A stretch of DNA of 33,007 bases, from positions 1 to 33,007 of IMG/VR virus record IMGVR_UViG_2547132254_000003. The stretch is one strand, 5' to 3'. The notes under the pieces are model-generated. The model made no database searches and was not told where the DNA came from. It saw only the letters and a list, made by a program, of their open reading frames with translations. This stretch comes from a virus. Taxonomy: Duplodnaviria; Heunggongvirae; Uroviricota; Caudoviricetes. The position numbers were made by a program, and so were the translations under genes. Position 1 is the first letter of the stretch; each line of letters begins with the position of its first letter. This document shows positions 1 through 16,478 of the stretch, one piece after another.

Positions 1-1119
1 TCAAATAACCAACTTAACCCATTCCTGACCTCGAGTATCGTTATAGCGATCGGTGGTTGCCTGGACTTTATGTCCTAGTAATGTTTTTGTATCGATACCC
101 TGTGCACGGTACAGCCGTTCTGATAGAGAGCGTTGTTCATGAAATGTTGGCGGAGTTTTTCCTGCTGGTGGAATTATCCCAGCCAGATCCCGTGCTTTGG
201 CAAAGTAGTCGCTCAGGTTGTCTTTACTCATCGGCTTCGGTTGTTTCTGGTGCCGACTATGGATTAGATATGGACTTAATATTCTGTCTCGGCACCCATC
301 AATAACTTCTTTTAACGTTATCCCAATGGCATCACAGCGTAGTGTAAGCGGTAACGCCAGACGCATTCCGGTTTTTCCCTGGGTGATATGCAAGTGTTCG
401 TTCCACACATCTGAAAAACGCATGTGGCAAATGTCATCACGGCGCTGACCAGTAACAATCGCAAGAAGCATTGCGTTACGGATAAAGTGTTTTTCAGGCG
501 TTGCATTGTAAATTTTTTGCCAGTCTTCCATGGTGAGCCTGGCTCTGGTTACTTTAGGGATCGGTTTACGGGTAGCCTCCGGAGGATTCCATCCAGGAGG
601 AACTTCCCCTGCATGCTGTGCTTCTTTATAAATATCAACCCATAATCCACGATTTACTCTCGCTGTGCTGACCATGTCTTTATCCAGCCACTCATCCAGT
701 ATTAATGCAAAGTCTCTTACTTCCAGTTCTTTCAATGGGTGGTTTCCCAGACGGGAAACCAGGTATGCAGCCATTCGGGTTTTTTCTTTGTGAGTTGTAG
801 CTGCAATATCTCCATTTTTCAGTCGCGTGTCCTGTATTTTCAGATATCGATCAACCCATGCCTTTAATCTGATACCCCGACGTTTTGTTGCTGACGGACT
901 TTCATCAATTTTGCGCATGAAATATTCAGCTTCTGCTGCAGCTATTCGCTGATTGGCTGTGGAAGCGATTTTTTCTGCCTTACATTTGTCTGTTCCGAGT
1001 CCGTGAAATTTTCCAGTCACAGGATTTTTATACTGGTAGTAAACTCTGCCAGTTCTGCGATCAAACTTTTCGTAAAGACCGGCTACGTCAGTGCTGTTTT
1101 TTCGTGGCCTCGGTGACAT
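1..1119 (-). CDS. int: Phage integrase (tyrosine recombinase), 372 aa, complete; stop codon at window position 1-3
   Basis: Full-length ORF with ATG at 1119; size and position typical of lambdoid integrases; directly followed by an Xis-like gene and overlaps it by about 30 nt. Family assignment from overall sequence character and context, not a search. Confidence 0.8.
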   Translation of the reverse strand: MSPRPRKNSTDVAGLYEKFDRRTGRVYYQYKNPVTGKFHGLGTDKCKAEKIASTANQRIAAAEAEYFMRKIDESPSATKRRGIRLKAWVDRYLKIQDTRLKNGDIAATTHKEKTRMAAYLVSRLGNHPLKELEVRDFALILDEWLDKDMVSTARVNRGLWVDIYKEAQHAGEVPPGWNPPEATRKPIPKVTRARLTMEDWQKIYNATPEKHFIRNAMLLAIVTGQRRDDICHMRFSDVWNEHLHITQGKTGMRLALPLTLRCDAIGITLKEVIDGCRDRILSPYLIHSRHQKQPKPMSKDNLSDYFAKARDLAGIIPPAGKTPPTFHEQRSLSERLYRAQGIDTKTLLGHKVQATTDRYNDTRGQEWVKLVI

Positions 1120-1357
1120 GAGTTAAAATCTCCTTCAGTGCATCATCATCGCCAGTATGAATTTCCGGCGCAATTCCCGTTTCACCAGGCCCAACAAACA
1201 CTGCTCGGCGATCTATCAGCCAACGCCCACGAATTTTTTGTGGCCTTGGAACGATGTATCCTAGTTTTCCGTATTTCACCAGGGTAGTGTTTGTTATTGG
1301 GAGACTGAACCGTTTTGGTTTCCACTCGTCGAGCGTTATCAGGTACTGTTCGCTCAT
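1088..1357 (-). CDS. xis: Excisionase-like protein (Xis family), about 89 aa
   Basis: ATG at 1357 with GGAG about 9 nt upstream (the ORF track begins at an upstream GTG, 1366). N-terminal YLITLDEW...R pattern resembles lambda Xis (YLTLQEW). Sits immediately upstream of int. Confidence 0.6.
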   Translation of the reverse strand: MSEQYLITLDEWKPKRFSLPITNTTLVKYGKLGYIVPRPQKIRGRWLIDRRAVFVGPGETGIAPEIHTGDDDALKEILTHVTEATKKQH

Positions 1358-1418
1358 GGCTATCACTCCGGAACGCGCCAGTTGCAGAATATCAACGACA
1401 ACTGGCGACGGTTGAACA

Positions 1419-3890
1419 TTAAAAATCAGCCTGACTCGGGATCAGTTTTTGCCAGATAACTGAAACGTATTTTGCCTGGTAACGGGCGTCATCAAGTGCA
1501 TTATGGCGCTCACCTTCGAATGGAATAGCCGTTCTGGCATCGAAGTCTATGGCTTTCCCCAGCTCAACGATTGTGCGTACATCGCGATCGTTGTAGTAAC
1601 GCCACGGGCAGGGGATCCCCTGCCGTTCGTATGAACGGCGCAAAATCGTGTTGTCGAAGTTGGCTCCATTTCCCCAGACCTGAACAAAAAATTCACCGGA
1701 GTTTTCGTCGATAAATTCCCGCAATTGTAACAGTGCATCATCTAACGGGATTTCATCGGTCATAATGGCAGATTGCGCTTCGCGTGATTGCTTAAGCCAC
1801 CATTTAATGGTGTCCCGATCAATGACTCCGCCAGCAGTTTCCAGATCGATAGTCTTACTAAATTCCGGTCCCATATCTCCGGTTTGCGGATCGAAAAATA
1901 TTGCACCTATTGAGATGATCGGGGCATCAGGATTTTTTCCCATAGTTTCAAGGTCGATCATTAGATGGTCACACGTCCTGCTGGTGGATGTGATTTCTTG
2001 ATGACCGTTCACCTTAATTGAGTGATCTGCCGTCTCGCCAGTTTCATTATCGCTGGCATGATGCTGATTGCCGCCAGTATTCTCCTTGTGTGGATGTTCA
2101 GCGCCTTCCATTTCCTCCGGATCATCTTCCTGAACTTCAACCTGATACTCTTCATCGAATGTTTCCTGGTATGTTGCGTCGCCCATCACCGCGCCACAAT
2201 CAGGGCAGTTGCCGCCGCCGGTCTGACCGCAGGCGGTGCAGACTTTTTCCACTTCCTGTTGCGCCACTGGTTCAGGCTGTTTCGTTTCTGGCTCGTTTTG
2301 TAACGCATTTGGGCTGTTTTGTTCCGCTTTCTGGTCGTTCTGTTCCGTTTCTTGCTGGTTCTGGTTCACAGAATCGCGGGTCTGGATCCCCTTAACCCAT
2401 TTCGGATCATTCGGGTCGCTAATCCCTTCAACAAATTCACCACGTGATACTGCAAGCAGTTCATCGGCGTCAGGCTGGCTGATATTGGCTGCCTGCATAA
2501 TTTTGTTTACTTCGTCAGCGGTAACTTTTACTGACCCTGGTTGTGCGGTCGTGTCAGATGCACCAGTATTTTGTTGTGAACCTGAGTATGTACCGTTTTT
2601 GCGGGCGAAATATTCTTCTTTCGTGATTTCAGTAGCCCCGGCAGCCAGTGCCTTACCCAGACCAGAAAGTTTGTTTGCGCGACCGTATTTTTCGCCATCC
2701 TTGTCGGTGAAGAGGAAGTAGAACGGCCCCTCACGCTCTACAGATGGTTCGACTTCCACTTTGCATTCGGTTTTTTCGTTGTCCGGAATTGCCGTTTCCA
2801 CTGCATCAGTTTCTGGTACTGGCGCCGAGAGAGTATCAGTTGCGCTCTGATTTCTTCCTTCATCTTCAAACACGCCCTTTGTAGTCAGGTATTCAGTAAT
2901 GTATTTGTTCAGTGCCACAGGGTCTTTGTGAATGTCGATCGGACGTTCACGGACAAGGCCAAAAATAGTCTGGCGGTCGTAGCGAAGGGCATCAGGCTGT
3001 TTGCGCATTGATGCCGAGATACGCTTCCAGTCTTCGCGGTCGTTGTCGATAACTTCATTTTTTGCCCAGCGATGGATGCTGCCGTCAATGTTTCCGGCAT
3101 CCACATCACCAGGCCAGAGAGCGTAGGCCAGTTCGTCATCCAGTGTTTTCCATGTCTGCTTGTATTCGCGATGAGTGGCAGCAATGACCGGGTTGATTTT
3201 TCCTGTTGAATTTTCAGTGTGCTGTTGATTGGCTCTGGCGCGGGCGAGATCAACAACAGACGTGTATTTTCCGGTTTCCTTGCGTTCATCTTCGCGACGT
3301 TTTTTCCAGATGCGCATCTCTGCCTGAATTTCGGGCCATTTGGCACCTGGATTACATTTATGTTTAACCCACCCGATGGCGAGCAGCTTAAGCTCTGAAT
3401 ACATGACGTTAACTTCAGGCATTTTCATCAATGCCTCAACGATATGCCCGTCGAATGTTGCCATGTCCTCCTGCAACAATTCCTGTGCACTAATCACCAT
3501 ATCAACGGTGATGTTTTCACATGTACCGAACTTAACTAGGACCGCGTTCTGTACTTCAAGGGACAGCTTGTCAAAATTGACGTTCATCGGATCGGATTCT
3601 GGTTCGACCGGAATAAAGGAAGCGGATTCCTCATCCCAGTGGTTTTCCTGCATATATTCGGTATCCCAGGAATCAAGGGCAGGGCGGGCCATGCCGGGTT
3701 TATCCTCACAGACAAGAAATTTATAAGCGCAGTCCTGAGCAGCCGGATGTTGCTCCAGGAATTGCCAGGTAAATTTGGCACGGGCGCGGCGTTCGTCGCC
3801 GGCTTCAATGGCAGTGGCTACAGCAACTGCACCTTCTTCCTTTATTGCCTGTTCGTCCGGAATGGCGGCGCAAATAAAGACTTTACTCAT
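1419..3890 (-). CDS. Large exonuclease-like protein, 823 aa, in the RecE position; C-terminal DnaQ-like DEDDh 3'-5' exonuclease domain
   Basis: C-terminal region has IDLETMG (Exo I-like D-x-E) and HNALDDARY (Exo III-like H-x4-D) motifs; central acidic/Q-rich low-complexity segment; a CTACG...CPDCG four-cysteine motif. ATG at 3890 with GAGG upstream. Confidence 0.6.
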   Translation of the reverse strand: MSKVFICAAIPDEQAIKEEGAVAVATAIEAGDERRARAKFTWQFLEQHPAAQDCAYKFLVCEDKPGMARPALDSWDTEYMQENHWDEESASFIPVEPESDPMNVNFDKLSLEVQNAVLVKFGTCENITVDMVISAQELLQEDMATFDGHIVEALMKMPEVNVMYSELKLLAIGWVKHKCNPGAKWPEIQAEMRIWKKRREDERKETGKYTSVVDLARARANQQHTENSTGKINPVIAATHREYKQTWKTLDDELAYALWPGDVDAGNIDGSIHRWAKNEVIDNDREDWKRISASMRKQPDALRYDRQTIFGLVRERPIDIHKDPVALNKYITEYLTTKGVFEDEGRNQSATDTLSAPVPETDAVETAIPDNEKTECKVEVEPSVEREGPFYFLFTDKDGEKYGRANKLSGLGKALAAGATEITKEEYFARKNGTYSGSQQNTGASDTTAQPGSVKVTADEVNKIMQAANISQPDADELLAVSRGEFVEGISDPNDPKWVKGIQTRDSVNQNQQETEQNDQKAEQNSPNALQNEPETKQPEPVAQQEVEKVCTACGQTGGGNCPDCGAVMGDATYQETFDEEYQVEVQEDDPEEMEGAEHPHKENTGGNQHHASDNETGETADHSIKVNGHQEITSTSRTCDHLMIDLETMGKNPDAPIISIGAIFFDPQTGDMGPEFSKTIDLETAGGVIDRDTIKWWLKQSREAQSAIMTDEIPLDDALLQLREFIDENSGEFFVQVWGNGANFDNTILRRSYERQGIPCPWRYYNDRDVRTIVELGKAIDFDARTAIPFEGERHNALDDARYQAKYVSVIWQKLIPSQADF

Positions 3891-4013
3891 TTTGTTTTAA
3901 CCTCATTACAGATTTAAGGATGAACAAATCCCTGCCATTGCTGGCATATAAGAATCAAATCTGATGTATTCATTAAGCTGAATGTCGTATTGTGGCAGTT
4001 ATTTTATTGCTGC

Positions 4014-4235
4014 TCACCATGACTCTGCTTTTACAGGTAAACCATCACGACCAAGGAAGACTTTAATCATGGTTTCCTTAATACAGTGTTGTGTGGAAAA
4101 ATCACGAATATAGAGCCGTTGTTTTTTAATGTTGTTTACCGAAGCAATATATGTTCTTCCTTTATGAATAACATAATCACCGGGAGTCACGCACTGACGA
4201 GGAATCTCATCAGTTCCGAAGTGATGAGCAATCAT
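4014..4235 (-). CDS. Small protein (about 73 aa) directly downstream of DicF; possible Kil/DicB-position cell-division inhibitor
   Basis: ORF track gives 4014..4247; the internal ATG at 4235 has GGAG upstream. Function is inferred only from position downstream of DicF (as dicB is in Qin) and from a 73-aa size like Rac KilR; the protein does not match my recollection of DicB. Confidence 0.45.
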
Positions 4236-4414
4236 AATTATCTCCATTTTTACAAATGAACTTTGTTGATGCGGTGCCTGGTGCCTCCAGGTGACGTTAA
4301 CCAGTTAACAATTAACGCCGGATACAGAGAATCCACCCATAACACTGTTTTTGGTTTTAACTGTTCCGCGTGCGCTCAGCCGCATTCACCACATCACAAA
4401 ATTCACTTTAAAAA

Positions 4415-4467
4415 GGGCGGCAGAGCAGTCACGGAGTAAAACTGATACCGCCAAACGTCACCAGAAA
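4415..4467 (-). ncRNA. dicF: DicF-like small RNA (53 nt) followed by a T-run
   Basis: Reverse complement of 4415-4467 reads TTTCTGGTGACGTTTGGCGGTATCAGTTTTACTCCGTGACTGCTCTGCCGCCC followed by TTTTTA, which matches my memory of E. coli Qin DicF. Located in the leftward early operon. Confidence 0.65.
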
Positions 4468-4800
4468 ATTGATAACAGAGGGCGTTGCAGCGGGGTTGTC
4501 ACTTAAGCGTATGGTCAACCTGACAACCCGGTGTCCTCAACGGGGAAGGAATAACCCCGCCATACTTACCGCCGCGCCATTTCGCGGAGTGCCACAACCG
4601 GAAGCGCACGGTCGACGAAAATTTAACGACAGGCTATCTATGAACCAACAACTTCGCCGTGCGCTTTCGCGTTATGCCCTGACTTTTCAGGGAGATATCC
4701 TTTCAGTAAACTGTCAGTGCCGGATGCTCACCCGTGTCCGGCGCACGCACTCCACCTCACCCGTGGAGAACTCCTTAATTACTAACCCTCAGGAGGATGA

Positions 4801-5077
4801 AATGGGGTTTGATGTCAATGAAACTCTTAACTCTCTTATACGGAAAATTAATGATTTTGATAAAACACTACAGCATGCTGCGGCGCGTAGTGATATAACA
4901 TTGTTAGCAATTTCATACCTTGCATCTGCCATGAATAAAGATGAAACGGTACGAAAGAATCTCGTTGATTATATCGACTCGCTTCAGCCGGGCACTTTCA
5001 ACCCTGAGAGCTTCAATCATGAGAAAGAGCATGTTAAATCTGTAATTAATTCTCTTGTTTTGAATCAAAAGAATTGA
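4801..5077 (+). CDS. Hypothetical protein, about 92 aa, AT-rich, opposite in orientation to the early-left operon
   Basis: ATG at 4801 preceded by AGGAGG at optimal spacing. The upstream part of the 4469..5077 frame overlaps the DicF region, is GC-rich and has no good start, so only the 4801 start is called. 3' end overlaps the convergent gene 5046..5375. Confidence 0.4.
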
Positions 5078-5375
5078 TGCTTCTTGTTACGAAGCAATTT
5101 TCAAGGGGTTCTATCCGAATCCCTTTCTTTTCCATTAACAAGCCAAACCCCTTATTAATGATGTCCATTAGATCCAGGAAGTATTTTTCATGTAAATCCT
5201 GGTTATCAGAGAGCTGCTTCTCTTCGTACAGACCGATAAAGGCACGACGCACGTTACCGGATATAGTATCGATGGTTTCTTTTTCTACGGTACTCAGGTC
5301 AAGAGTCGCCAGTTGGGAACGAACTATATTCGCTGCCATTTCCTGGAATTGCATTGGTAAATCTTTAAATTCCAT
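5046..5375 (-). CDS. Hypothetical protein, 109 aa, early-left operon
   Basis: ATG at 5375 with GAGG 7 nt upstream; 22-nt gap from the stop of the upstream gene (5398), consistent with an operon. No recognisable motif. Confidence 0.55.
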   Translation of the reverse strand: MEFKDLPMQFQEMAANIVRSQLATLDLSTVEKETIDTISGNVRRAFIGLYEEKQLSDNQDLHEKYFLDLMDIINKGFGLLMEKKGIRIEPLENCFVTRSINSFDSKQEN

Positions 5376-5397
5376 TATTAGCCTCGTTGGTTAGCTA

Positions 5398-5616
5398 TTA
5401 ACGCGGGTATGTAATCATTCTGGCAATGCTTAATGCCGCTGCTTTTTCCAGCCTGGTGATATCCTGCTCCAGAGCGGACAGATTTTCAGCCTGCTTAGCC
5501 CTGGCTTCATTGGCCCATTTCAAATCCTGCGCTGCATTAATTTTCTGGCGCATCCACTCATAAAGTTCATCATCGGTATAGTCTGGCGCGATGATGACAG
5601 GTTCTCGTTTCTGCAT
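5398..5616 (-). CDS. Hypothetical protein, about 72 aa, early-left operon
   Basis: ORF track starts at GTG 5655; the internal ATG at 5616 has AAGGAG 5 nt upstream. Coiled-coil-like C-terminus. Confidence 0.5.
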   Translation of the reverse strand: MQKREPVIIAPDYTDDELYEWMRQKINAAQDLKWANEARAKQAENLSALEQDITRLEKAAALSIARMITYPR

Positions 5617-5687
5617 GTCAGCTCCTTGTGGTTCGCATTGCCTGCTTTTAACCACGTCAGGCGAGGTGGTATCCTCTGAGGGGTCTG

Positions 5688-6044
5688 TTACTCGAGAGGA
5701 AATTGGTTATGAATACAATCAAGTTTTCTTGCCCAGAATGTGGTGGCGAAGTCTTTGACACATCCTTTAAGCCGCAGGGCTCTGACAGTTTCGCGGGAGC
5801 CATCTGCAAAAATTGTGGTCACCTTGTAACTGAAGATGAGTCCTCGCAGTTCGATGACGAAATCGTTGACAATATCTTCGGTGCACTCACCAGAGACTTT
5901 CTGAAATAAAGACGCATACCGCTTAGTTACCGCTCTGATAACTCTTACCTGTCCGGCAATGGCGCTGATGTCAATATAAAGCGCCATTGCTGCTTCTTTG
6001 CCGATCCCGTGATGCCTTCCATTCTGATGTTTGACTTCGCCCAC
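5688..6044 (-). CDS. Hypothetical protein, 118 aa; would be the first gene of the leftward early operon
   Basis: GTG start with AGAGGA upstream; operon context supports it, but it overlaps a plausible + strand zinc-ribbon ORF, so one of the two is probably not real. Confidence 0.3.
   Translation of the reverse strand: MGEVKHQNGRHHGIGKEAAMALYIDISAIAGQVRVIRAVTKRYASLFQKVSGECTEDIVNDFVIELRGLIFSYKVTTIFADGSRETVRALRLKGCVKDFATTFWARKLDCIHNQFPLE
5709..5909 (+). CDS. Small zinc-ribbon protein, about 66 aa (alternative to the overlapping - strand ORF)
   Basis: CPECGG ... CKNCGH four-cysteine motif with zinc-ribbon spacing; acidic C-terminus; GAGAGGA about 9 nt upstream of the ATG at 5709. Confidence 0.3.
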   Translation: MNTIKFSCPECGGEVFDTSFKPQGSDSFAGAICKNCGHLVTEDESSQFDDEIVDNIFGALTRDFLK

Positions 6045-6233
6045 TGAGAAATCCTCTGTTTCCCCTTAACGCCGGGGTAGCGGAACAAAAACCTGCTGCA
6101 TAGTTATTAAAGTTGAACCCTGCCGTCATGTTCTTACGCCTCGGGCTGGCTACTTAACCCCTGACCACTGCCTGGTAACTCGAAGTATTGCCCTGCATTC
6201 TGTGGGGCGGGGTGGGTTGGTATGAAAAGAAGG

Positions 6234-6271
6234 ATACCCATAGGTATTTAAAAAGTAAATACCCATGGGTA
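6234..6271. promoter_or_regulatory. Putative left operator (OL) palindromes
   Basis: ATACCCATAGGTAT (6234-6247) and TACCCATGGGTA (6260-6271) are palindromes with TACC/GGTA arms, located just downstream of the repressor gene's 3' end and upstream of the leftward operon. Confidence 0.35.
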
Positions 6272-6313
6272 AATTTTTGCGGTGTCTTAACTGGTGACTA
6301 GTTGTTTGGTGAG

Positions 6314-6733
6314 CTATGATGCGTTTTGTGCTTTCTTTTTACGGATTTCTTCGTAGATCATATTGTAATACTGTTTTTTCTCTTCAAGAGTTTTTAATAA
6401 TTTATCCGCTTCACTTTCTGGCAGTTCGTCTAAGAGATCTAAAAAAATACGTTGTCGTGGCGTTAGAACCCTTGTTTCATAACTGGAGGCTGTGTTCGTT
6501 GATGATGAAACGATACCATCCATCCATCCCCGGGGTAACCCAAAGGACTCTTCGATAATCTCCACCATATCATCAGCGATCCGTTTTTTTCCCTTTTTCC
6601 CCTCTGGGTACAACATTCTTGATACATAAGAAGGCTCGCGCCCGATCTTTCTGGCCACGTTAACCGCTTTACCATCGCATTTCTCATCACGAATTTTGAT
6701 GAGTTGCTGTCGTCTAAATTCATATTTGTCCAT
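6314..6733 (-). CDS. Prophage repressor (CI/RacR-like HTH protein), 139 aa
   Basis: Divergent from a Cro/YdaS-like gene; flanked on both sides by TACC-n-GGTA palindromes; N-terminal region has HTH-like character. Family from context and motif reading. Confidence 0.65.
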   Translation of the reverse strand: MDKYEFRRQQLIKIRDEKCDGKAVNVARKIGREPSYVSRMLYPEGKKGKKRIADDMVEIIEESFGLPRGWMDGIVSSSTNTASSYETRVLTPRQRIFLDLLDELPESEADKLLKTLEEKKQYYNMIYEEIRKKKAQNAS

Positions 6734-6752
6734 AGGTAAATAATAGATGCGA

Positions 6753-6809
6753 TTACCGCAAGGTAAACAACCTGTGGGTATTGACTTTTGTTTACCTGTG
6801 GGTATTCTT
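6753..6809. promoter_or_regulatory. Putative right operator/promoter region (OR/PR) between the divergent repressor and cro-like genes
   Basis: TTACCGCAAGGTAA (6753-6766), CCTGTGGGTAT (6771-6781) and TACCTGTGGGTA (6793-6804) share the half-site seen at the left operators; TTGACT at 6781-6786 is a candidate -35 for rightward transcription. Confidence 0.4.
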
Positions 6810-6833
6810 TGCTGTGTTTACTAAGGAGTAGCT

Positions 6834-7115
6834 ATGGAAGAATTAAGAATATTTCTCAATTCTCTTTCGTCAGATGAACAGCGTATGTTTGCATGCGAGT
6901 GTGGTACCAGCATCGGTTATCTAAGAAAGGCATTGAGTAAAGGTCAAGTGTTAGGGGCATCGTTATGTGTCCTTATTGAGCGAGCCAGTAATGGTGAAGT
7001 TACACGTCAGCAACTAAGGCCTTTTGATTGGATGAATATTTGGCCCGAGCTGGAAGATACCAAAACGTTAACACAACCACTTTCTAGGAGCTTGATTCAT
7101 GAAAATCAAGCATGA
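6834..7115 (+). CDS. Cro/YdaS-family HTH regulator, 93 aa
   Basis: ATG with AAGGAG upstream; ERASNGEV...QLRPFDW pattern resembles Rac YdaS (ERATRGEV...ELRP); divergent from the repressor. Confidence 0.65.
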   Translation: MEELRIFLNSLSSDEQRMFACECGTSIGYLRKALSKGQVLGASLCVLIERASNGEVTRQQLRPFDWMNIWPELEDTKTLTQPLSRSLIHENQA

Positions 7116-7524
7116 ACACATCCGCATGGCGATGAATGCCTGGGCGCGTCCTGATGGCGAAAAAGTTCCAGCAGCTGGAATAACCCAGGCTTATTTTGAG
7201 TTGGGTATGACGTTCCCAGAACTGTATGACGACAGCCATCCGGAAGCCCTGGCTCGCAATACCCAGAAAATTTTCCGCTGGGTAGAGAAAGACACCCCTG
7301 ATGCTGTTGAAAAAATGCAGGCTCTGTTACCGGCGATCGAAAAGGCGATGCCGCCTTTGCTGGTGGCCCGTATGCGCAGCCACAGTTCTGAATATTACCG
7401 TGAGATCGTCGAACGGAGGGATCGGCTGGTGAAGGATGTCGATGATTTTGTTGCGTCAGCGGTTGTTTTGTATGACCAGATGAATCGCGGCGGCCCGGCA
7501 GGGAATGCTGTGGTGATGCACTAA
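7099..7524 (+). CDS. YdaT-like protein (CII-position regulator), 141 aa
   Basis: Begins MKIKHEHI and ends ...VVMH, as I recall for Rac YdaT; sits between the cro-like and replication genes. Confidence 0.55.
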   Translation: MKIKHEHIRMAMNAWARPDGEKVPAAGITQAYFELGMTFPELYDDSHPEALARNTQKIFRWVEKDTPDAVEKMQALLPAIEKAMPPLLVARMRSHSSEYYREIVERRDRLVKDVDDFVASAVVLYDQMNRGGPAGNAVVMH

Positions 7525-7546
7525 AAGCACGGTGTTCGGGGGTTTT

Positions 7547-8509
7547 ATGAGCAGCAAGCTTCATGGTCTTGTCTGGGAAGGGTGCGCCTTCACCGGCATG
7601 ATCTTATCCAGGGTGGCGGTTATGGCCCGTCTTGCAGACTACAGCAATGACGAGGGCGTGTCATGGCCTGCCATTGAAACTATCCGGCGTCAGATCGGTG
7701 CAAGAAGTGAATCCACAGTGAAATCGGCTATTGCAGAACTGGCGAAAGAGGGCTGGCTGACGAAGGAAGAGCGTAAGGTCGGTGGGCGTAATGTAAGCAA
7801 TATCTATCGGCTTAATGTGGAAAAACTCGAAGCAGCTGCGGCGGCGGCGCGTGAGTCATATAAACCGAAAAGAAAAATTAGCCCGGCAAAAAATGACCCG
7901 TTAACAGTTGACCCGTCAAATATTGACCCCTCAACGGTTGACCCGTCAAATTTTGATGGATCAACTGTTGATAAAAAACTGCCGATTAGGGGGGCGATGA
8001 TTGACCCCGATCCGTCAGTATTAAAACCTGATCCGTCAGATAAAAGATCTTCTTGTCCGGACGCTTCGCAACCGGACCCGCAGACGGCTGAACAGGATTT
8101 TTTAACCCGACACCCTGACGCGGTTGTGTTCAGTGCGAAAAAACGCCAGTGGGGAAGTCAGGAAGATTTGGTGTGCGCACAGTGGATCTGGGGACGAATC
8201 GTGAGTCTTTACGAGCAGGCGGCCAGCTATGATGGCGAGATCACTAGACCGAAAGAACCCAACTGGACAGCATGGGCCAATGACGTTCGCACAATGCGGA
8301 TGCTGGATGGCAGAACTCACAGACAAATTTGTGAAATGTTTGGGCGTCTCCAGCGGGATTCGTTCTGGGTAAAAAACATCATGAGTCCGGCAAAACTCCG
8401 GGAAAAATGGGATGAACTGGTTATCCGCCTGGGGCGTTCGCCTGCGCAGCGTTGCGTGAATCACATTTCTGAACCGGACACTGAAATACCGCCGGGATTC
8501 AGGGGGTGA
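7547..8509 (+). CDS. Replication initiator (lambda O-like / YdaU-like), about 320 aa
   Basis: Position upstream of a DnaC-like loader; N-terminal HTH-like domain; contains an internal array of 15-bp iteron-like repeats encoding a D-P-S/T-rich linker, as the lambda origin lies inside O. ORF track starts at GTG 7532; ATG at 7547 used. Confidence 0.65.
   Translation: MSSKLHGLVWEGCAFTGMILSRVAVMARLADYSNDEGVSWPAIETIRRQIGARSESTVKSAIAELAKEGWLTKEERKVGGRNVSNIYRLNVEKLEAAAAAARESYKPKRKISPAKNDPLTVDPSNIDPSTVDPSNFDGSTVDKKLPIRGAMIDPDPSVLKPDPSDKRSSCPDASQPDPQTAEQDFLTRHPDAVVFSAKKRQWGSQEDLVCAQWIWGRIVSLYEQAASYDGEITRPKEPNWTAWANDVRTMRMLDGRTHRQICEMFGRLQRDSFWVKNIMSPAKLREKWDELVIRLGRSPAQRCVNHISEPDTEIPPGFRG
7893..7967. 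repeat. Iteron-like direct repeats (five units, 15-bp period), putative replication origin inside the initiator gene
   Basis: TGACCCGTTAACAG, TTGACCCGTCAA, TTGACCCCTCAA, TTGACCCGTCAA and TTGATGGATCAA start at 7893, 7908, 7923, 7938 and 7953; each unit has internal dyad symmetry; an AT-richer stretch follows. Confidence 0.55.
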
Positions 8510-8515
8510 CGTGTC

Positions 8516-9262
8516 ATGAAAAACATTGCGGCAGTTGGGGTTCTTGAACGTATTCGCAGACTTGCACCACAGGGGTCGGTTCCACCGTACCGGACGGTGG
8601 AGGAGTGGCGGGAATGGCAACTTGCTGAAGGACGAAAACGCAGCGAGGAGATTAACCGCCAGAATCGCCAGTTGCGGGTGGAAAAAATCCTGAATCGTTC
8701 GGGCATCCAGCCTCTGCACAGCAAATGCTCGTTTGCAAATTATCAGGTGCAGAACGACGGGCAAAAATACGCGCTGAGCCAGGCCAAATCCATAGCTGAC
8801 GAACTGATGACCGGGTGCACGAATTTTGTGTTCAGCGGTAAAACCGGCACCGGGAAAAATCACCTTGCAGCGGCGATGGGCAACCGGCTGATGGTGAAGG
8901 GGCGCAGCGTGATTATCGTCACCGTGTCTGACGTCATGAGCGTGTTGCATGACAGCTACGACAACGGCAAATCCGGGGAAAAATTTTTACAGGAGCTTTG
9001 CGGGGTTGATTTGCTGGTCCTGGATGAAATAGGCGTTCAGCGGGAGACGAAAAACGAGCAGGTGGTATTGCACCAGATAATTGATCGCCGGACAGCATCA
9101 CTGTGCAGTGTCGGGATGTTAACAAACCTGAATCATGCCGCAATGAGTACGCTTCTTGGTGAGAGGATTATGGACCGCATGACCATGAACGGTGGTCGAT
9201 GGGTGACGTTTAACTGGGATAGCTGGCGTCCAAATGTCAGCAATATGAGGGTTGTGAAGTAA
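8516..9262 (+). CDS. DnaC-like helicase loader (IstB-type AAA+ ATPase; YdaV-like), 248 aa
   Basis: Walker A FSGKTGTGKNHLAAAMG and Walker B LLVLDEIG; position after the initiator; same length as Rac YdaV. Confidence 0.85.
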   Translation: MKNIAAVGVLERIRRLAPQGSVPPYRTVEEWREWQLAEGRKRSEEINRQNRQLRVEKILNRSGIQPLHSKCSFANYQVQNDGQKYALSQAKSIADELMTGCTNFVFSGKTGTGKNHLAAAMGNRLMVKGRSVIIVTVSDVMSVLHDSYDNGKSGEKFLQELCGVDLLVLDEIGVQRETKNEQVVLHQIIDRRTASLCSVGMLTNLNHAAMSTLLGERIMDRMTMNGGRWVTFNWDSWRPNVSNMRVVK

Positions 9263-9283
9263 TTTTGTCCGGAGGAAATTTTA

Positions 9284-10054
9284 ATGGAAACCGTATCTGA
9301 CGCACTGAAAGCACTGAAAAAAGCCTCTTCACATGTGGTGGCAGCTCGCCTTGGAATCAGTCGTGAAGAGGCTGTCAACGAGCTGTGGGAACTCAAAAGA
9401 AAAGGCGTCGTTGATAAAACTGGTCACACCTGGTTTCTGGCTGGCGAAGGTGAATCCCGGGTAACCGAAGAGCGGCCAGTAAAATCTGAAGCACAGGATA
9501 TGCTGACCGGGGAGGTCGAACAAAAAGTTACCGCAGACATGATGATTGAGTTTATCGGTCAGGATGGGGCTAAAACGTGTGAGGAACTGGCGGGTAAGTT
9601 CGGTGTCAGTACTCGCAAGGTTGCTTCCACGCTGGCGGTGGTAACCGCAACGGGGCGGCTGGCACGCGTTAATCAGAACGGTAAATTTCGTTACTGCATG
9701 CCGGGCGATAATTTACCAGCAGAGCCGAAAGCCGCGCTGGTAACGGAAAGTGATGGTAAGGCCTTTCCTCAGCCAGCAGGTGCTGCGTTACCAGTCCGGG
9801 AAGCCGCAACACAGGAAGAAATTAAAACAGAAACTGTGGCGGACATTGTGCAGCCGTTGCCATCGTTTACCGAAACGCAAGCAGATGAGCTGATTTTTCC
9901 GTCCCTTCGCAGGGCAAACCTGGCGCTGCGCAGGGCGAAAAGTGATGTTCAGAAGTGGGAGCGAGTCTGCGCCGCGCTGCGGGAGCTGAACAAGCACCGG
10001 GATATTGTTCGACAGATTACTGATTCTTCCCGCCGTGTTGTATCGGAAAAGTGA
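9284..10054 (+). CDS. Hypothetical phage protein, 256 aa
   Basis: ATG with GGAGGA upstream; no motif recognised. Confidence 0.5.
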   Translation: METVSDALKALKKASSHVVAARLGISREEAVNELWELKRKGVVDKTGHTWFLAGEGESRVTEERPVKSEAQDMLTGEVEQKVTADMMIEFIGQDGAKTCEELAGKFGVSTRKVASTLAVVTATGRLARVNQNGKFRYCMPGDNLPAEPKAALVTESDGKAFPQPAGAALPVREAATQEEIKTETVADIVQPLPSFTETQADELIFPSLRRANLALRRAKSDVQKWERVCAALRELNKHRDIVRQITDSSRRVVSEK

Positions 10055-10069
10055 TTGCCGGAGGCGCTT

Positions 10070-10495
10070 ATGGCAAAAGTATTTACACAAGAAGAGCGGG
10101 AAAAAATTAAAGGGCAGGTTGTTGAACTTGTACGTCTGAGCGGTCGCGAGACGTTGCGGCAACTGGAAGCCAGGACAGGTGCGACAAGATATCTGATGAG
10201 TGTTCTCGCCAGAGAGCTGGTTGCCAGTGGCGATGTATACAACTCTGGTTACGGGTTATTCCCGTCTGAACAGGCGCGTAAGGACTGGCAAAATGCTCGC
10301 AAAAAACTCTCAAGGGCAAAGGTGAAGAAACCTGCAGTGGTTGATCCGGACCTTATCTGGTCGTTACCAGACGGCGAAATACGCCGCTACGACAGGCGCC
10401 TGAATATAATCTGTCGCGAGTGCCGGAAGAGCGAAGCTATGCAGCGTGTACTGGCATTTTATCAAGGAAATGTTAGGTATTTTAGACGTTACTAG
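10070..10495 (+). CDS. Hypothetical phage protein, about 141 aa
   Basis: ATG at 10070 with GGAGG upstream (ORF track begins at 10055); cysteine pair CRECRK near the C-terminus. Confidence 0.5.
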   Translation: MAKVFTQEEREKIKGQVVELVRLSGRETLRQLEARTGATRYLMSVLARELVASGDVYNSGYGLFPSEQARKDWQNARKKLSRAKVKKPAVVDPDLIWSLPDGEIRRYDRRLNIICRECRKSEAMQRVLAFYQGNVRYFRRY

Positions 10496-10648
10496 ATTAA
10501 AGAGCATTAGTTCAGATGTGAATTGACATTTTCATGGCGCAGGGTAGAGCCAGCGTGGTTGTCCGCTTTGCGTCAAAACCAGATATTACCAGATTTAGAC
10601 ATATATTCCCGATAGACCTGCTCTGATGCTACACTCTGTGCTATTTTC

Positions 10649-11335
10649 ATGACCCCAATAAAAATATTTATGACTATTGCTGATTTCAAACGGCCTAAAT
10701 TGGAGCTCCCAAACGGGGCAAACAAACTACTACTGCACTCTTGCTGTGCTCCATGTTCCGGTGAAGTGATGGAGGCGCTTCAGGCCTCGGGAATCGACTA
10801 CACCATCTTTTTCTACAACCCGAACATTCATCCTCAGAAAGAGTATTTAATTCGTAAGGATGAAAATATTCGCTTTGCTGAACAACACGGCGTGCCGTTT
10901 ATCGATGCTGATTACGACACCGACAACTGGTTTGAACGTGCCAAAGGAATGGAATGGGAGCCTGAGAGGGGGATCCGTTGTACCATGTGTTTTGACATGC
11001 GTTTTGAGCGGACAGCGTTGTACGCTGCTGAAAATGGTTTCAGTGTGATCAGCAGTTCACTGGGCATTTCACGCTGGAAAAATATGCAGCAGGTTAACGA
11101 GTGTGGGCGGCGAGCTGTTGCGCATTATCCGGGTATGGTGTACTGGGATTATAACTGGCGCAAGCAGGGCGGCTCGTCCCGTATGATTGAAATCAGCAAG
11201 CGCGAAAAATTCTATCAGCAGGAATATTGTGGCTGTGTGTATTCTCTGCGCGATACCAATCTACACCGCAAATCTCAGGGACGCCCTCTTATCAAAATTG
11301 GCCAACTCCACTACGGAAAAGAAGAGAAGGAGTGA
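10649..11335 (+). CDS. DUF208/QueH-like protein (epoxyqueuosine reductase-like), 228 aa
   Basis: N-terminal [11 protein letters not shown] cysteine motif and further conserved cysteines (CTMC, CGC) recalled from the QueH family; candidate promoter TTGACA ... TACACT in the upstream intergenic region, so it looks like a moron. Confidence 0.5.
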
Positions 11336-11514
11336 TTTTATGGATCACCTTTCTGATTGATTTTATATTGGCGAGGTAACGGGAGTTAAGTAGAATGGCT
11401 GCGGGTGCTTGAGGCTATCTGTCTCAGGCATGAACACCAAAGGCAGATAGAGAAAAGCCCCAGTTAACATTACGCGTCCTGCAAGACGCTTAACATTAAT
11501 CTGAGGCTCAATCT

Positions 11515-11727
11515 ATGAACGGCAAATCTAGGTTAGCCTCTTACGTGCCGAAAGGCAAGGAGAAGCAGGCTATGAAGCAGCAAAAGGCGATGTTAATCGC
11601 CCTGATCGTCATCTGTTTAACCGTCATTGTGACGGCACTGGTAACGAGGAAAGACCTCTGCGAGGTACGAATCCGAACCGGCCAGACGGAGGTCGCTGTC
11701 TTCACAGCTTACGAACCTGAGGAGTAA
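11515..11727 (+). CDS. mok: Mok-like in-frame leader ORF overlapping hok, 70 aa
   Basis: In-frame upstream extension of the Hok ORF with GAGG upstream, analogous to chromosomal mokC/hokC organisation. Confidence 0.45.
   Translation: MNGKSRLASYVPKGKEKQAMKQQKAMLIALIVICLTVIVTALVTRKDLCEVRIRTGQTEVAVFTAYEPEE
11572..11727 (+). CDS. hok: Hok/Gef-family type I toxin, 51 aa
   Basis: MKQQKAMLIALIVICLTVIVTALVTRKDLCEVRIRTGQTEVAVFTAYEPEE: single TM helix plus the conserved RKDLCEV-IRTGQTEVAVFTAYE core of Hok/Gef; AAGGAG upstream of the ATG. Confidence 0.8.
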   Translation: MKQQKAMLIALIVICLTVIVTALVTRKDLCEVRIRTGQTEVAVFTAYEPEE

Positions 11728-11790
11728 GAGACCTGGCGGGGGAGAAATCCCTCGCCACCTCTGATGTGTCAGGCATCCTCAACGCACCCG

Positions 11791-11799
11791 CACTTAACC
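11791..11799. repeat. Left copy of the 9-bp target site duplication (CACTTAACC) of IS10
   Basis: Identical 9-mer immediately flanks both ends of the IS10 element. Confidence 0.8.
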
Positions 11800-13128
11800 C
11801 TGATGAATCCCCTAATGATTTTTATCAAAATCATTAAGTTAAGGTAGATACACATCTTGTCATATGATCAAATGGTTTCGCCAAAAATCAATAATCAGAC
11901 AACAAAATGTGCGAACTCGATATTTTACACGACTCTCTTTACCAATTCTGCCCCGAATTACACTTAAAACGACTCAACTGCTTAACGTTGGCTTGCCACG
12001 CCTTACTTGACTGTAAAACTCTCACTCTTACCGAACTTGGCCGTAACCTGCCAACCAAAGCGAGAACAAAACATAACATCAAACGAATCGACCGATTGTT
12101 AGGTAATCGTCACCTCCACAAAGAGCGACTCGCTGTATACCGTTGGCATGCTAGCTTTATCTGTTCGGGCAATACGATGCCCATTGTACTTGTTGACTGG
12201 TCTGATATCCGTGAGCAAAAACGGCTTATGGTATTGCGAGCTTCAGTCGCACTACACGGTCGTTCTGTTACTCTTTATGAGAAAGCGTTCCCGCTTTCAG
12301 AGCAATGTTCAAAGAAAGCTCATGACCAATTTCTAGCCGACCTTGCGAGCATTCTACCGAGTAACACCACACCGCTCATTGTCAGTGATGCTGGCTTTAA
12401 AGTGCCATGGTATAAATCCGTTGAGAAGCTGGGTTGGTACTGGTTAAGTCGAGTAAGAGGAAAAGTACAATATGCAGACCTAGGAGCGGAAAACTGGAAA
12501 CCTATCAGCAACTTACATGATATGTCATCTAGTCACTCAAAGACTTTAGGCTATAAGAGGCTGACTAAAAGCAATCCAATCTCATGCCAAATTCTATTGT
12601 ATAAATCTCGCTCTAAAGGCCGAAAAAATCAGCGCTCGACACGGACTCATTGTCACCACCCGTCACCTAAAATCTACTCAGCGTCGGCAAAGGAGCCATG
12701 GATTCTAGCAACTAACTTACCTGTTGAAATTCGAACACCCAAACAACTTGTTAATATCTATTCGAAGCGAATGCAGATTGAAGAAACCTTCCGAGACTTG
12801 AAAAGTCCTGCCTACGGACTAGGCCTACGCCATAGCCGAACGAGCAGCTCAGAGCGTTTTGATATCATGCTGCTAATCGCCCTGATGCTTCAACTAACAT
12901 GTTGGCTTGCGGGCGTTCATGCTCAGAAACAAGGTTGGGACAAGCACTTCCAGGCTAACACAGTCAGAAATCGAAACGTACTCTCAACAGTTCGCTTAGG
13001 CATGGAAGTTTTGCGGCATTCTGGCTACACAATAACAAGGGAAGACTCACTCGTGGCTGCAACCCTGCTTACTCAAAATCTATTCACACATGGTTACGTT
13101 TTGGGGAAATTATGAGGGGATCTCTCAG
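11800..13128 (+). mobile_element. IS10 (IS4 family), 1329 bp, intact, with terminal inverted repeats
   Basis: Left end CTGATGAATCCCCTAATGATTTT (IS10 outside end), right end reverse complement CTGAGAGATCCCCTCATAATTTCCCC (inside end); length 1329 bp; flanked by a perfect 9-bp direct repeat. Confidence 0.9.
11907..13115 (+). CDS. IS10 transposase, 402 aa
   Basis: Full-length ORF, MCELDILHDSLYQFCPELHLKRLN... matching my recollection of IS10/Tn10 transposase almost residue for residue; no frameshift or stop. Confidence 0.9.
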   Translation: MCELDILHDSLYQFCPELHLKRLNCLTLACHALLDCKTLTLTELGRNLPTKARTKHNIKRIDRLLGNRHLHKERLAVYRWHASFICSGNTMPIVLVDWSDIREQKRLMVLRASVALHGRSVTLYEKAFPLSEQCSKKAHDQFLADLASILPSNTTPLIVSDAGFKVPWYKSVEKLGWYWLSRVRGKVQYADLGAENWKPISNLHDMSSSHSKTLGYKRLTKSNPISCQILLYKSRSKGRKNQRSTRTHCHHPSPKIYSASAKEPWILATNLPVEIRTPKQLVNIYSKRMQIEETFRDLKSPAYGLGLRHSRTSSSERFDIMLLIALMLQLTCWLAGVHAQKQGWDKHFQANTVRNRNVLSTVRLGMEVLRHSGYTITREDSLVAATLLTQNLFTHGYVLGKL

Positions 13129-13137
13129 CACTTAACC
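13129..13137. repeat. Right copy of the 9-bp target site duplication (CACTTAACC) of IS10
   Basis: Identical to 11791-11799. Confidence 0.8.
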
Positions 13138-13208
13138 CGCTTCGGCGTTTTTTCCGTTGATTAACTCTAGTTATTAGAGAACCGAACTTTTATTGATGGG
13201 GCAGGGAG

Positions 13209-13601: not shown

Positions 13602-13800
13602 TGTATAGCTTGGACGATAAATTATTAGTGAAAACGCCGTAAACCCTCACCCAATGTGGACTAAGTCTATCAAACATGACTGTGATGATTAGTCCGTAGT
13701 TGTTGTCTATGAAATCTGGATTGAGTCAGGGTTTAATCCAATAATTATTCTATCGTTCCTTTACAAGTCCGGTATATTACTTTCAGTTTGTTTTAGCATA

Positions 13801-13824
13801 CCCGCTTCGGCGGGTTTTGTTTTT
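13801..13824 (+). terminator. Rho-independent terminator (CCCGC-TTCG-GCGGG plus T-run)
   Basis: Perfect 5-bp GC stem with UUCG tetraloop followed by TTTTGTTTTT. Confidence 0.6.
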
Positions 13825-13896
13825 CCTGGCATTCTGGTTTACAATTCGCACGCCAGCCTGAACAACTGGCACCTGCTGCGCCAGCAGAGACAACCG

Positions 13897-14175: not shown

Positions 14176-14176
14176 C

Positions 14177-15226: not shown

Positions 15227-15238
15227 AAGAGGTTACTG

Positions 15239-16284: not shown

Positions 16285-16350
16285 AAGGCATATATTTCAT
16301 GCAAATCTGATATTTTGCCGATTTTGTACGTGATGGCAAAAGCAAACAAA

Positions 16351-16470: not shown

Positions 16471-16478
16471 CTGCGCCC

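Follow-up and report, generated by a model that had tools for sequence, protein, structure and literature searches.

The window, by which is meant the whole 33,007-nt stretch of viral DNA that was analysed, carries on its minus strand an ORF of 823 aa. A PHROGs scan assigned the protein over its full length (1-823 of 823) to PHROG 2082, 'exonuclease'. The gene is flanked by xis and kil (Table 1). In the Rac prophage the gene order is int-xis-rcbA-ralR-recT-recE-racC-ydaE-kilR, with recE-recT occupying the equivalent slot, and the Kil gene region of the window is 89% identical in nucleotide sequence to the Rac kilR/ydaE junction. The original prediction, made from the sequence alone, had placed the gene in the exo/recE position of lambdoid phages, and the xis-kil interval bears this out. 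Compared with Rac, none of recT, ralR and rcbA was found between xis and the exonuclease gene. Early-left ORFs of 109, 85 and 118 aa matched only PHROG families to which no function is assigned. Candidate sites for a dedicated promoter of the 823-aa gene were no commoner than in shuffled sequence and none lay at 3890-4014; a dedicated promoter, which would permit expression in lysogens, was rejected on this basis.

Table 1. Features of the exonuclease gene and its surroundings. Positions are those of the window; aa numbers are those of the 823-aa protein.
Feature	Position	Strand	Details
Integrase	1..1119	-	PHROG 7244 and PHROG 1
Excisionase (xis)	1088..1366	-	PHROG 629; directly downstream of the 823-aa exonuclease gene
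Putative chimeric exonuclease gene, 823 aa	1419..3890	-	RecE-type N-terminal scaffold and predicted DEDDh C-terminal domain
Predicted DEDDh (Rv2179c/DexA-type, DnaQ-fold) 3'-5' exonuclease domain, aa 642-813	1452..1967	-	PF16473; AlphaFold/Foldseek
Linker shared with Rac recE, aa 475-623 (RecE 455-589)	2024..2466	-	blastn, BLASTP
Zinc-ribbon-like CxxC-x7-CxxC (C551, C554, C562, C565)	2196..2240	-	Common to RecE
Small folded module 3, aa 385-435	2586..2738	-	Beta-hairpins plus helices; pLDDT 91-96
Folded helical module 2, aa 245-340	2871..3158	-	pLDDT about 97
N-terminal folded module 1, aa 1-205	3276..3890	-	Alpha/beta plus helices; pLDDT about 95
Kil-type septation inhibitor	4014..4247	-	PHROG 294, E 2.6e-34; immediately upstream of the exonuclease gene, early-left operon
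DicF sRNA	4415..4466	-	Rfam RF00039, 76.7 bits
14 Chi octamers (GCTGGTGG)	164..32083	9 on + (late-gene strand), 5 on -	Compared with shuffled sequence

From D-x-E and H-x4-D motifs the C-terminus had been read as DEDDh-type, and not as the PD-(D/E)XK fold of lambda Exo and RecE. Domain search and structure prediction were both run and both returned the DnaQ fold. Pfam PF16473 matched at E 1.6e-67 (227.1 bits, cut-off 27; positions 2-177 of the 177 in the model), and all five catalytic residues could be mapped: D646 and E648 of the D-x-E motif lie in IDLET, the Exo II aspartate D746 lies in NFD, and H796 and D801 form the H-x4-D motif. Across 58 homologues D646, D746, H796 and D801 never vary, and E648 is kept in at least 90% of them. 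The AlphaFold model of the domain (pLDDT 86, pTM 0.83) gave 152 Foldseek hits at E ≤0.001. The top PDB match was T4 DexA (E 2.4e-11, TM 0.73), which was also recovered by a PDB sequence search with the domain, and further PDB matches were RNase T, REXO2/Orn and a Cas2-DnaQ domain. A PD-(D/E)XK C-terminus was ruled out by Pfam, which returned no such domain, by BLASTP against RecE, by the AlphaFold model, nearest to DexA and RNase T, and by Foldseek. The RecE nuclease domain (606-866) gave no alignment to the 823-aa protein by BLASTP, tblastn or phmmer.

On the predicted structure, the C-terminal domain is a DEDDh exonuclease with an RNase H-like DnaQ fold. Its polarity and substrate are inferred from family membership, and the predicted activity is metal-dependent 3'-to-5' exonucleolytic digestion from the 3' ends of single-stranded or tailed nucleic acid, since the characterised members of the DEDDh fold are all 3'-5'. 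The domain would thus not be a 5'-3' dsDNA exonuclease leaving 3' tails. By analogy with DexA and RNase T, the protein is probably a dimer or higher oligomer. Members of the PF16473 family differ in substrate, which may be DNA (DexA), RNA (Rv2179c) or both.

The remainder of the protein was compared with RecE. Residues 262-625 aligned with residues 278-591 of Rac RecE by BLASTP (40% identity, E 3e-63), and the homology ended approximately 15 residues short of the crystallised RecE nuclease domain (RecE 605-866, PDB 3H4R), which itself found no counterpart. Because the homology stops just ahead of that domain, the alignments identify the 823-aa protein as a domain-swap chimera, comprising a RecE-related N-terminal two-thirds and a DEDDh domain. 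The label 'RecE-position exonuclease' of the original prediction was therefore correct as to position and too modest in being merely positional, since scaffold and linker are homologous to RecE. The NCBIfam RecE equivalog model NF007259 scored 284.5 bits against a cut-off of 1269, with the match limited to the linker region.

The linker is shared with Rac recE at the DNA level as well. Its DNA is 77.7% identical to Rac recE over 443 bp (blastn), and the zinc ribbon plus acidic linker reach about 85% protein identity, as judged by eye from the BLASTP alignment. Both low-complexity features noted earlier were present, with 14 D/E and no K/R at aa 561-600 and 10 Q/N at aa 481-520, as was the zinc-finger-like motif CTACG...CPDCG. 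AlphaFold pLDDT fell below 50 at aa 502-548, 567-589, 594-606 and 615-640. The crossover of the domain swap probably lay in this mostly disordered linker, with recombination within it as the most likely origin of the swap; both gene types still share the linker at 78% nucleotide identity. Among fused orthologues the zinc-ribbon motif occurs only in Escherichia-type forms, and the zinc ribbon was for this reason rejected as a defining trait of the fusion.

Module 2 overlaps the part of the scaffold that is commonest among RecE-family proteins and is homologous to RecE 278-340 and to many other representative proteins. Foldseek searches with the N-terminal 640 aa returned best E values of 1.2 (PDB) and 0.07 (BFVD), at which no annealase-like or other known fold could be assigned. 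For module 1, no PDB or BFVD structural match was found at E <0.01. Precomputed annotation places Pfam PF27430 and PF27432 on the N-terminal regions of homologues.

Related N-terminal scaffolds were found joined to different C-termini. Some end in a DEDDh domain (proteins P0241, P0243, P0249, P0257, P0261 and P0363), others in a RecE-type nuclease (P0264, P0313, P0366 and others), and some have no recognisable domain at that end. In P0249 a Rac-type RecE N-terminus (1-501) is followed by the same DEDDh domain. In L001 and L088 the N-terminus is unrelated (dS saturated), but the C-terminus is nearly identical (dS 0.008).

The gene is under purifying selection. Against orthologues aligning over its full length, dN/dS was 0.18-0.33; by region, omega was 0.14-0.62 across all three regions and 0.14-0.35 in the folded parts. 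Of the 80 related viral contigs, 70 carried an unbroken ORF of 811-831 aa, and 3531 of 5426 complete E. coli genomes (65%) contained at least 80% of the gene, often in several copies. The viable phages mEp460, Tritos, HannyBb and Evi all carry it. Truncated copies also occur: in K-12 the Qin gene ydfE is cut by IS2, the L158 locus in Shigella is disrupted, and many of the entries in databases are incomplete. Nothing on ydfE function was found in the literature searched. Such copies would suit a decaying, functionless remnant carried along with prophages, but the ORF of the window is intact, its catalytic residues are conserved as described above and its folded parts are constrained. The selection and conservation data already largely refute this explanation, which we regard as highly improbable.

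The gene is not new. It is already annotated (PGAP labels it "3'-5' exonuclease") and is very common in E. coli prophages, and the arrangement has been described in outline by annotation pipelines and by Zheng et al. (2025, PMC12315714).

The PF16473-type domain occurs in 695 phage records, many of which belong to virulent phages without lambdoid recombination contexts. A free-standing form was found at 48 of 80 species-level loci, two of which (L127 and L128) adjoin an Erf annealase gene. The spread over phage records, together with a family that includes DexA, a scavenger of host DNA, Rv2179c-type exoribonucleases and Orn/REXO2-like folds, would fit a nuclease of host takeover or anti-defence, acting on host or defence nucleic acids with free 3' ends and not on phage intermediates. 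Candidate substrates would be retron msDNA, small RNAs, nanoRNAs and fragments of host DNA, which T4 DexA likewise degrades for nucleotide salvage. Fusion to the RecE scaffold and the reciprocal swap with a recombination nuclease at the same locus point instead to DNA ends, and in a non-systematic look none of 30 fused orthologues lay in a recognisable defence or anti-defence island. A takeover or anti-defence role is considered unlikely.

The absence of an annealase partner, also part of the original prediction, was examined at several scales. Pfam and PHROGs scans covered 30 ORFs of the window, namely every candidate early-left ORF and the main ones for replication, nin, lysis and packaging, and returned no annealase. 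For the head and tail ORFs beyond 23898 the coverage was by tblastn alone. With RecT, Red-beta and Erf as queries, tblastn gave no match anywhere in the window, in which Sak, Sak4 and Gp2.5-type annealases were covered by Pfam and PHROGs only. None of the proteins RecT, Red-beta, Erf, lambda Exo, Gam and Abc2 turned up in the window, in 80 related viral contigs (IMG/VR), in four complete phages that carry the gene, or within 8 kb of 30 orthologues of the fused type in other species. The annealase queries used in tblastn at these related loci were RecT, Red-beta and Erf, so that annealases of the Sak, Sak4 or Gp2.5 type, or of a type not yet known, would be missed there. The general Pfam and PHROGs scans gave no match to an SSB family among the scanned ORFs.

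The small early-left ORFs had been named as the place where an annealase might lie hidden. Those of 77, 109, 85 and 118 aa, and those of 68 and 202 aa on the plus strand, gave no match to an annealase family, matched Kil or PHROG families of unknown function, and had no PDB sequence relatives. An annealase among them or elsewhere in the window was rejected on the Pfam, PHROGs, tblastn and PDB sequence searches. To our knowledge, all are shorter than any characterised annealase. The 823-aa protein is not one half of an exonuclease/annealase recombinase, and as far as sequence comparison can tell the phage codes for neither a recognisable annealase nor a homologue of Gam or Abc2, the two types for which the anti-RecBCD search was made.

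Chi was strongly over-represented. The 14 octamers compare with 1.25 expected (0.65 per strand) and with a maximum of 4 in 100 shuffles, and one (1980-1987) lies inside the exonuclease gene. Counts in the four complete carrier phages were 5-12 Chi on the late-gene strand and 2-3 on the opposite one, and lambda lacks Chi altogether. A lambdoid class with no Rec module and many Chi sites has been described (Zheng et al. 2025, Genome Res, PMC12315714). It is defined by at least 8 Chi in the active orientation and at most 6 in the other, and the window has 9 and 5. It is further defined by an early-left region in which no annealase, Exo/RecE nuclease, SSB or anti-RecBCD gene can be recognised, and none of these was recognised in that of the window. 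From the missing annealase, the missing Gam/Abc2 and the approximately ten-fold Chi enrichment, the phage seems to belong to this class, which relies on host RecBCD and RecA.

A further explanation would keep the locus a complete recombinase that has escaped recognition, in which an orphan N-terminal module or a small early-left ORF anneals strands and is paired with an exonuclease of reversed polarity. AlphaFold predicts the N-terminal modules with confidence (pLDDT >90), but no relative of any of them was found in the PDB or BFVD, and three of the small ORFs are conserved and without assigned function. Full-length RecE has, moreover, been reported to have recombination properties that its isolated nuclease domain lacks. 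Foldseek nevertheless detected no similarity to the solved annealases (the RecT, Red-beta and Rad52 folds in the PDB), and the same scaffold is present in RecE proteins that still need RecT. The small ORFs, of 77-118 aa, are not kept beside the gene in other phages, and the Chi enrichment favours dependence on the host pathway. Together these observations make a hidden recombinase very unlikely.

We favour the reading that the gene encodes an early-left modular nuclease, built of a RecE scaffold and a DEDDh domain, that putatively trims 3' ends for host RecBCD/RecA recombination, and give this a probability of about 0.6. The protein would be made from pL during lytic growth and would act on the ends of phage DNA and on recombination intermediates, trimming their 3' tails or flaps. 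Trimming would either blunt the ends, allowing RecBCD to load, or strip non-homologous 3' ends. Against an end-trimming role, 3'-5' single-strand exonucleases usually depress recombination (Zheng et al., PMC12315714), and a pro-recombination effect is not the obvious default.

A broader and doubtful extension is that the RecE-type scaffold serves as a general DNA-end delivery platform for nucleases of opposite polarity, the DEDDh form being a dedicated phage factor that readies ends for RecBCD and Chi by blunting them or trimming 3' tails. If so, this would constitute a third lambdoid strategy beside 'own recombinase plus RecBCD inhibitor' and 'Chi only', and the three orphan N-terminal folds would represent a new module, carried by most E. 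coli genomes, for targeting ends or binding partners. The gene is in any case a clean natural instance of a nuclease-domain swap on a common scaffold, and it marks phages that apparently depend on host RecBCD and Chi. Many phage records label it 'exodeoxyribonuclease VIII / RecE', a name that is wrong as to fold and polarity and suggests a RecT-type recombination system that is absent; the label would mislead both the mining of prophages for recombineering enzymes and forecasts of phage recombination ability. Its function and that of the three orphan folds are tractable in the culturable phages mEp460, Tritos, HannyBb and Evi.

Among known systems, T4 DexA (exonuclease A; PDB 8KEL/8KEN) is the best structural and PDB-sequence match to the C-terminal domain. 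Its residues D7, E9, D119, H186 and D191 align with D646, E648, D746, H796 and D801. DexA is only 20-22% identical, and it is a free-standing protein of 227 aa from a virulent phage, with extra loops. DexA W152 corresponds to Y766, so that the aromatic residue is kept but is not Trp, and DexA D169 corresponds to A780 in a gap-rich, unreliable part of the alignment. The 823-aa protein matches the whole model of PF16473, the Rv2179c-like 3'-5' exoribonuclease family. Free-standing Enterobacterales prophage proteins of 182-257 aa are 57-87% identical to its C-terminal domain; they lack the scaffold, whereas here the domain is fused behind 640 aa of RecE type.

The E. coli DexA homologue EcD (HREX; PMC12153337) belongs to the same Pfam family and also occurs on viral contigs. 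As EcD is reported to protect against T4 and DexA is the nearest solved structure, the 823-aa protein might likewise serve defence or inter-phage competition by selectively degrading the modified (5hmC-type) DNA that superinfecting T-even phages carry. The EcD primers match a 189-aa protein, which has the published A78 and is 38% identical to the DEDDh domain. This level of identity indicates a different subfamily, and since the primer match is a different homologue, identity of the 823-aa protein with the published EcD was rejected. EcD is itself free-standing (189 aa), and the residues highlighted in it differ: those concerned with 5hmC are changed at Y766 and, if the alignment is trusted there, at A780, while the tetramer-driving Asp (DexA D90), which is A78 in EcD, is retained as D718. 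The gene moreover comes last in the early-left operon, which is repressed, with no upstream promoter better than chance. A defence role would also leave the RecE-type scaffold and the Chi-rich, recombinase-less context unexplained, and is considered quite unlikely.

The E. coli enzymes ExoX and ExoI are host 3'-5' ssDNA exonucleases without a RecE scaffold. ExoX is a DnaQ-superfamily 3'-5' DNase, and host enzymes with 3'-5' polarity prepare ends for RecBCD (cited in PMC12315714).

The LLS functional type (PMC12315714) resembles the window in lacking an annealase, an Exo/RecE-type nuclease and Gam/Abc2, and in being rich in Chi; it is described without the int-proximal DnaQ-type nuclease gene that the window has. 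Zheng et al. (PMC12315714) note DnaQ-type nuclease genes near int, outside Rec modules, explicitly leave them out of the Rec-module genes, and do not analyse the RecE-scaffold fusion.

RecE (exonuclease VIII, Rac prophage of E. coli K-12) is the closest relative of the scaffold. Its gene occupies the same early-left slot between kil and xis/int, and the two proteins have in common the homologous scaffold and the zinc-ribbon/acidic linker. The first 260 or so residues of the 823-aa protein are unrelated to RecE. RecE has a recT partner, and the 823-aa gene does not. In RecE the scaffold leads into a toroidal PD-(D/E)XK 5'-3' nuclease; in the 823-aa protein its place is taken by the predicted DEDDh domain.

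The C-terminal domain of the 823-aa protein (aa 642-813) was matched by the whole of Pfam model PF16473 (Rv2179c-like 3'-5' exoribonuclease domain) at E 1.6e-67 and 227 bits (cut-off 27 bits), with RNase_T as a weaker Pfam match. T4 DexA (8KEL/8KEN) was its sole PDB sequence match. In an alignment with 57 homologues D646, D746, H796 and D801 were invariant and E648 was kept in at least 90%; in sequence order, the five residues align with DexA D7, E9, D119, H186 and D191. An AlphaFold model made from the same alignment (pLDDT 86, pTM 0.83) gave DexA as best PDB structure match (E 2.4e-11, TM 0.73). There were 152 matches at E ≤0.001, and others included RNase T, REXO2/oligoribonuclease and a Cas2-fused DnaQ domain. 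No PD-(D/E)XK protein was among the structure matches listed, and RecE residues 606-866 could not be aligned to the protein by any method. The original prediction, a DnaQ-like domain rather than a PD-(D/E)XK nuclease, therefore stands. By family membership, the domain would be a metal-dependent 3'-5' exonuclease acting on 3' ends, and the enzyme may oligomerise.

The preceding region was compared with K-12 RecE by BLASTP, which aligned aa 262-625 with RecE 278-591 (40% identity, E 3e-63). From residue 480 on, identity estimated from this alignment was approximately 85%. The CxxCG...CPDCG zinc-finger-like motif and acidic linker noticed at the outset lie in this stretch and are common to RecE. 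DNA identity with recE was 77.7% over window positions 2466-2024 (aa 475-623; RecE 455-589), where similarity ends. The only part of RecE crystallised is residues 605-866, so the break lies within the disordered linker, approximately 15 residues ahead of the nuclease domain. With 284 bits, the match to the NCBIfam RecE equivalog stayed below that model's cut-off of 1269, and NCBI's own rule thus excludes the protein from RecE. It is chimeric with respect to RecE.

AlphaFold modelling with 90 diverse homologues gave three confident N-terminal modules (aa 1-205, 245-340 and 385-435, each pLDDT >90) separated by disordered segments. The linker (approximately 500 to 640) was disordered except for the zinc-ribbon motif. 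This ribbon was confined to Escherichia-type fusions; fusions from Klebsiella, Citrobacter, Enterobacter and others lacked it, so the architecture does not need it. An annealase might be hidden within these orphan modules or the small ORFs; Foldseek searches with the N-terminal region returned nothing significant in PDB (best E 1.2) or BFVD (best E 0.07), with no sign of an annealase fold and nothing on which to base a function.

The gene is part of a lambdoid prophage and sits in its early-left arm (see table), which resembles those of Qin and Rac in carrying DicF and a Kil-type inhibitor. The matching stretch of Rac reads int-xis-rcbA-ralR-recT-recE-racC-ydaE-kilR; compared with this order, the exonuclease gene occupies the recE position and the recT position is empty. 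Approximately 550 bp (4250 to 4790) held no convincing ORF, only DicF. Of the overlapping 118-aa and 68-aa ORFs, either may be the real one. Rightward past the repressor are cro, cII, O-like and DnaC-like replication genes, RusA, Q, the tRNAs and lysis genes, followed by an HNH endonuclease, HK97-type terminase, portal, head and tail genes.

Features of the window.
Feature	Position	Strand	Remarks
Integrase	1-1119	-	early-left arm, first in order
Excisionase	1088-1366	-	between integrase and exonuclease gene
Exonuclease gene	1419-3890	-	823 aa
Kil-type division inhibitor	4014-4247	-	directly upstream of exonuclease gene
DicF sRNA	4415-4466	-	past Kil, upstream of exonuclease gene
Early-left ORF	5046-5375	-	conserved; PHROG 6937, function-less family
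Early-left ORF	5398-5655	-	conserved; PHROG 1744, function-less family
Early-left ORF, 118 aa	5688-6044	-	conserved; PHROG 21318, function-less family
Double-CxxC zinc-ribbon ORF, 68 aa	5703-5909	+	overlaps 118-aa ORF
CI-like repressor	6314-6733	-	past three small ORFs
QueH-type ORF	10649-11335	+	replication/nin region
sok RNA	11403-11577		hok/sok-type locus
IS10-like insertion	11845-13115		nin region
RNA-OUT antisense RNA	11845-11914	-	part of IS10-like insertion
DDE transposase, 402 aa	11907-13115	+	part of IS10-like insertion
Four tRNAs	16479-16788	+	Met-CAT, Lys-TTT, Thr-TGT, Gly-TCC; between Q and lysis genes
161-aa ORF	18849-19334	-	between lysis genes and terminase
Chi octamers, 14 sites	164-32083	both	on +: e.g. 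14218, 14275, 16407, 18091, 22224

Several further elements were recorded. The QueH-type epoxyqueuosine reductase ORF (Pfam PF02677, E 1e-65) belongs to a family listed by PHROGs as of unknown function; a tRNA-modification gene of this kind is unusual in a lambdoid phage. The hok/sok-type locus lies just ahead of the IS10-like insertion. The 161-aa ORF had no PHROG match and may be a moron.

Thirty window ORFs, comprising every early-left candidate and the principal ORFs for replication, nin, lysis and packaging, were scanned with Pfam and PHROGs; no RecT/Red-beta, Erf, Sak, Sak4, SSB or Gam-type family was found in them. The early-left ORFs of no assigned function had no PDB sequence relatives, and their PHROG matches were all function-less families. 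RecT, Red-beta, Erf, lambda Exo, Gam, Abc2 and the RecE nuclease domain were used as tblastn queries. None gave a match in the window, in 80 IMG/VR contigs containing the C-terminal domain, or in four complete phages carrying the gene (mEp460_ev081, Evi, Tritos and HannyBb); Exo, Bet and Gam were recovered from lambda as a control. A set of 80 species-level loci (Escherichia, Enterobacter, Klebsiella, Citrobacter, Kluyvera, Pluralibacter and others) included 30 RecE-scaffold fusions (641-851 aa), and tblastn detected none of RecT, Red-beta and Erf within 8 kb of these. Of 48 free-standing versions (182-257 aa) in the set, two adjoin Erf and one is near Abc2. Annealase types beyond RecT, Red-beta and Erf were screened inside the window only. 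Within the window, the predicted lack of an annealase partner was borne out in that no recognisable annealase is encoded, and no small early-left ORF matched one.

Of 5426 complete E. coli genomes, 3531 carry at least 80% of the gene; over the 4803 genomes with any match, matching places per genome number two at the median and up to ten. K-12 has only an N-terminal fragment, in Qin, cut by IS2. PGAP uses the names "exonuclease", "3'-5' exonuclease" and "3'-5' exoribonuclease domain-containing protein", and many phage records "exodeoxyribonuclease VIII". An intact ORF of 811-831 aa was found in 70 of 80 viral contigs. Values of dN/dS against orthologues were 0.14-0.35 (folded N-terminal part), 0.18-0.34 (exonuclease domain) and 0.34-0.62 (linker), indicating purifying selection, which contradicts simple decay. 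The original prediction was right in observation and interpretation, and the feature is ordinary: the prophage gene is ubiquitous and already carries an annotation, and its context was recently described in the literature.

Residues 1-640, searched against 1.84 billion representative proteins, gave only 255 clusters, and C-terminal types were surveyed in all 50 long ones. The scaffold was joined to a DEDDh C-terminus in P0241, P0243, P0249, P0257, P0261 and P0363, and to a RecE-type nuclease in P0264, P0313, P0366 and weaker cases. Some C-termini among the 50 had no Pfam-recognised domain; these may be the "RecE-2" proteins without a nuclease domain described by Zheng et al. (PMC12315714). In P0249, a Rac-type RecE N-terminus (residues 1-501) precedes the same DEDDh domain. 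Loci L001 and L088 share a near-identical C-terminal domain with the window protein (dS 0.008), whereas their first 340 residues have no relation to it (dS saturated). The nuclease "warhead" and N-terminal modules thus reassort independently. In four IMG/VR contigs (L184, L185, L187 and L190), a free-standing EcD-like 189-aa DEDDh gene (MIDTET...TPFLNI) is accompanied, at a distance of approximately 1.1-1.7 kb, by separate coding sequence that matches the RecE-type zinc-ribbon linker (RecE 517-548), so the two pieces also exist unfused. In P0317 (703 aa), RecE residues 1-528 run straight into RecT residues 83-269; this resembles the outcome of a deletion or an assembly artefact, with recE and recT fused and the nuclease domain lost. 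The 812-aa copy in L088 (JAGZPX010000007.1), with a C-terminal domain 99% identical to that of the window gene, is on a contig assigned to a Veillonella parvula MAG; this assignment almost certainly reflects misbinning rather than a real host.

From its context, the gene would be expressed from pL in lytic growth. Host single-strand exonucleases are required in RecBCD end processing, and DexA has a role in T4 double-strand-break repair. Borrowing from both, we tentatively propose (probability roughly 30%) that trimming of 3' tails or flaps by the enzyme would turn phage DNA ends into RecBCD substrates or let invading 3' ends prime synthesis; the enzyme would back the host pathway without forming a phage recombinase. 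Alternatively, it might degrade nucleic acids with free 3' ends in host takeover or anti-defence. Exclusion of phages with modified DNA, as by the HREX-type E. coli DexA homologue EcD reported to protect against T4 (PMC12153337), is a further alternative; however, EcD is a different, free-standing protein (189 aa, 38% identical), and residues highlighted for 5hmC recognition differ in the window protein.

Chi (GCTGGTGG) occurs 14 times in the window against 1.25 expected, approximately ten-fold enrichment (at most 4 in 100 shuffles), with 9 of 14 on the late-gene strand (+). One minus-strand Chi (16549-16556) runs from the end of the first tRNA into the second, of which it covers only base 1. 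The four complete carrier phages have 7, 12, 9 and 5 on the late-gene strand, compared with 2-3 on the opposite one (<1 expected), and lambda lacks Chi. Chi-rich lambdoid phages without a Rec module, proposed to be RecBCD-dependent, made up 22% of the panel of Zheng, Casjens, Davidson, Amundsen and Smith (Genome Res 2025, PMC12315714). According to these authors, lambdoid phages can encode DnaQ-like 3'-5' nucleases, and those near int, outside a Rec module, were not counted as recombination genes. The absence of a recognisable annealase would be explained by this context, and the Chi pattern of the window and the four carriers is the signature of that class.
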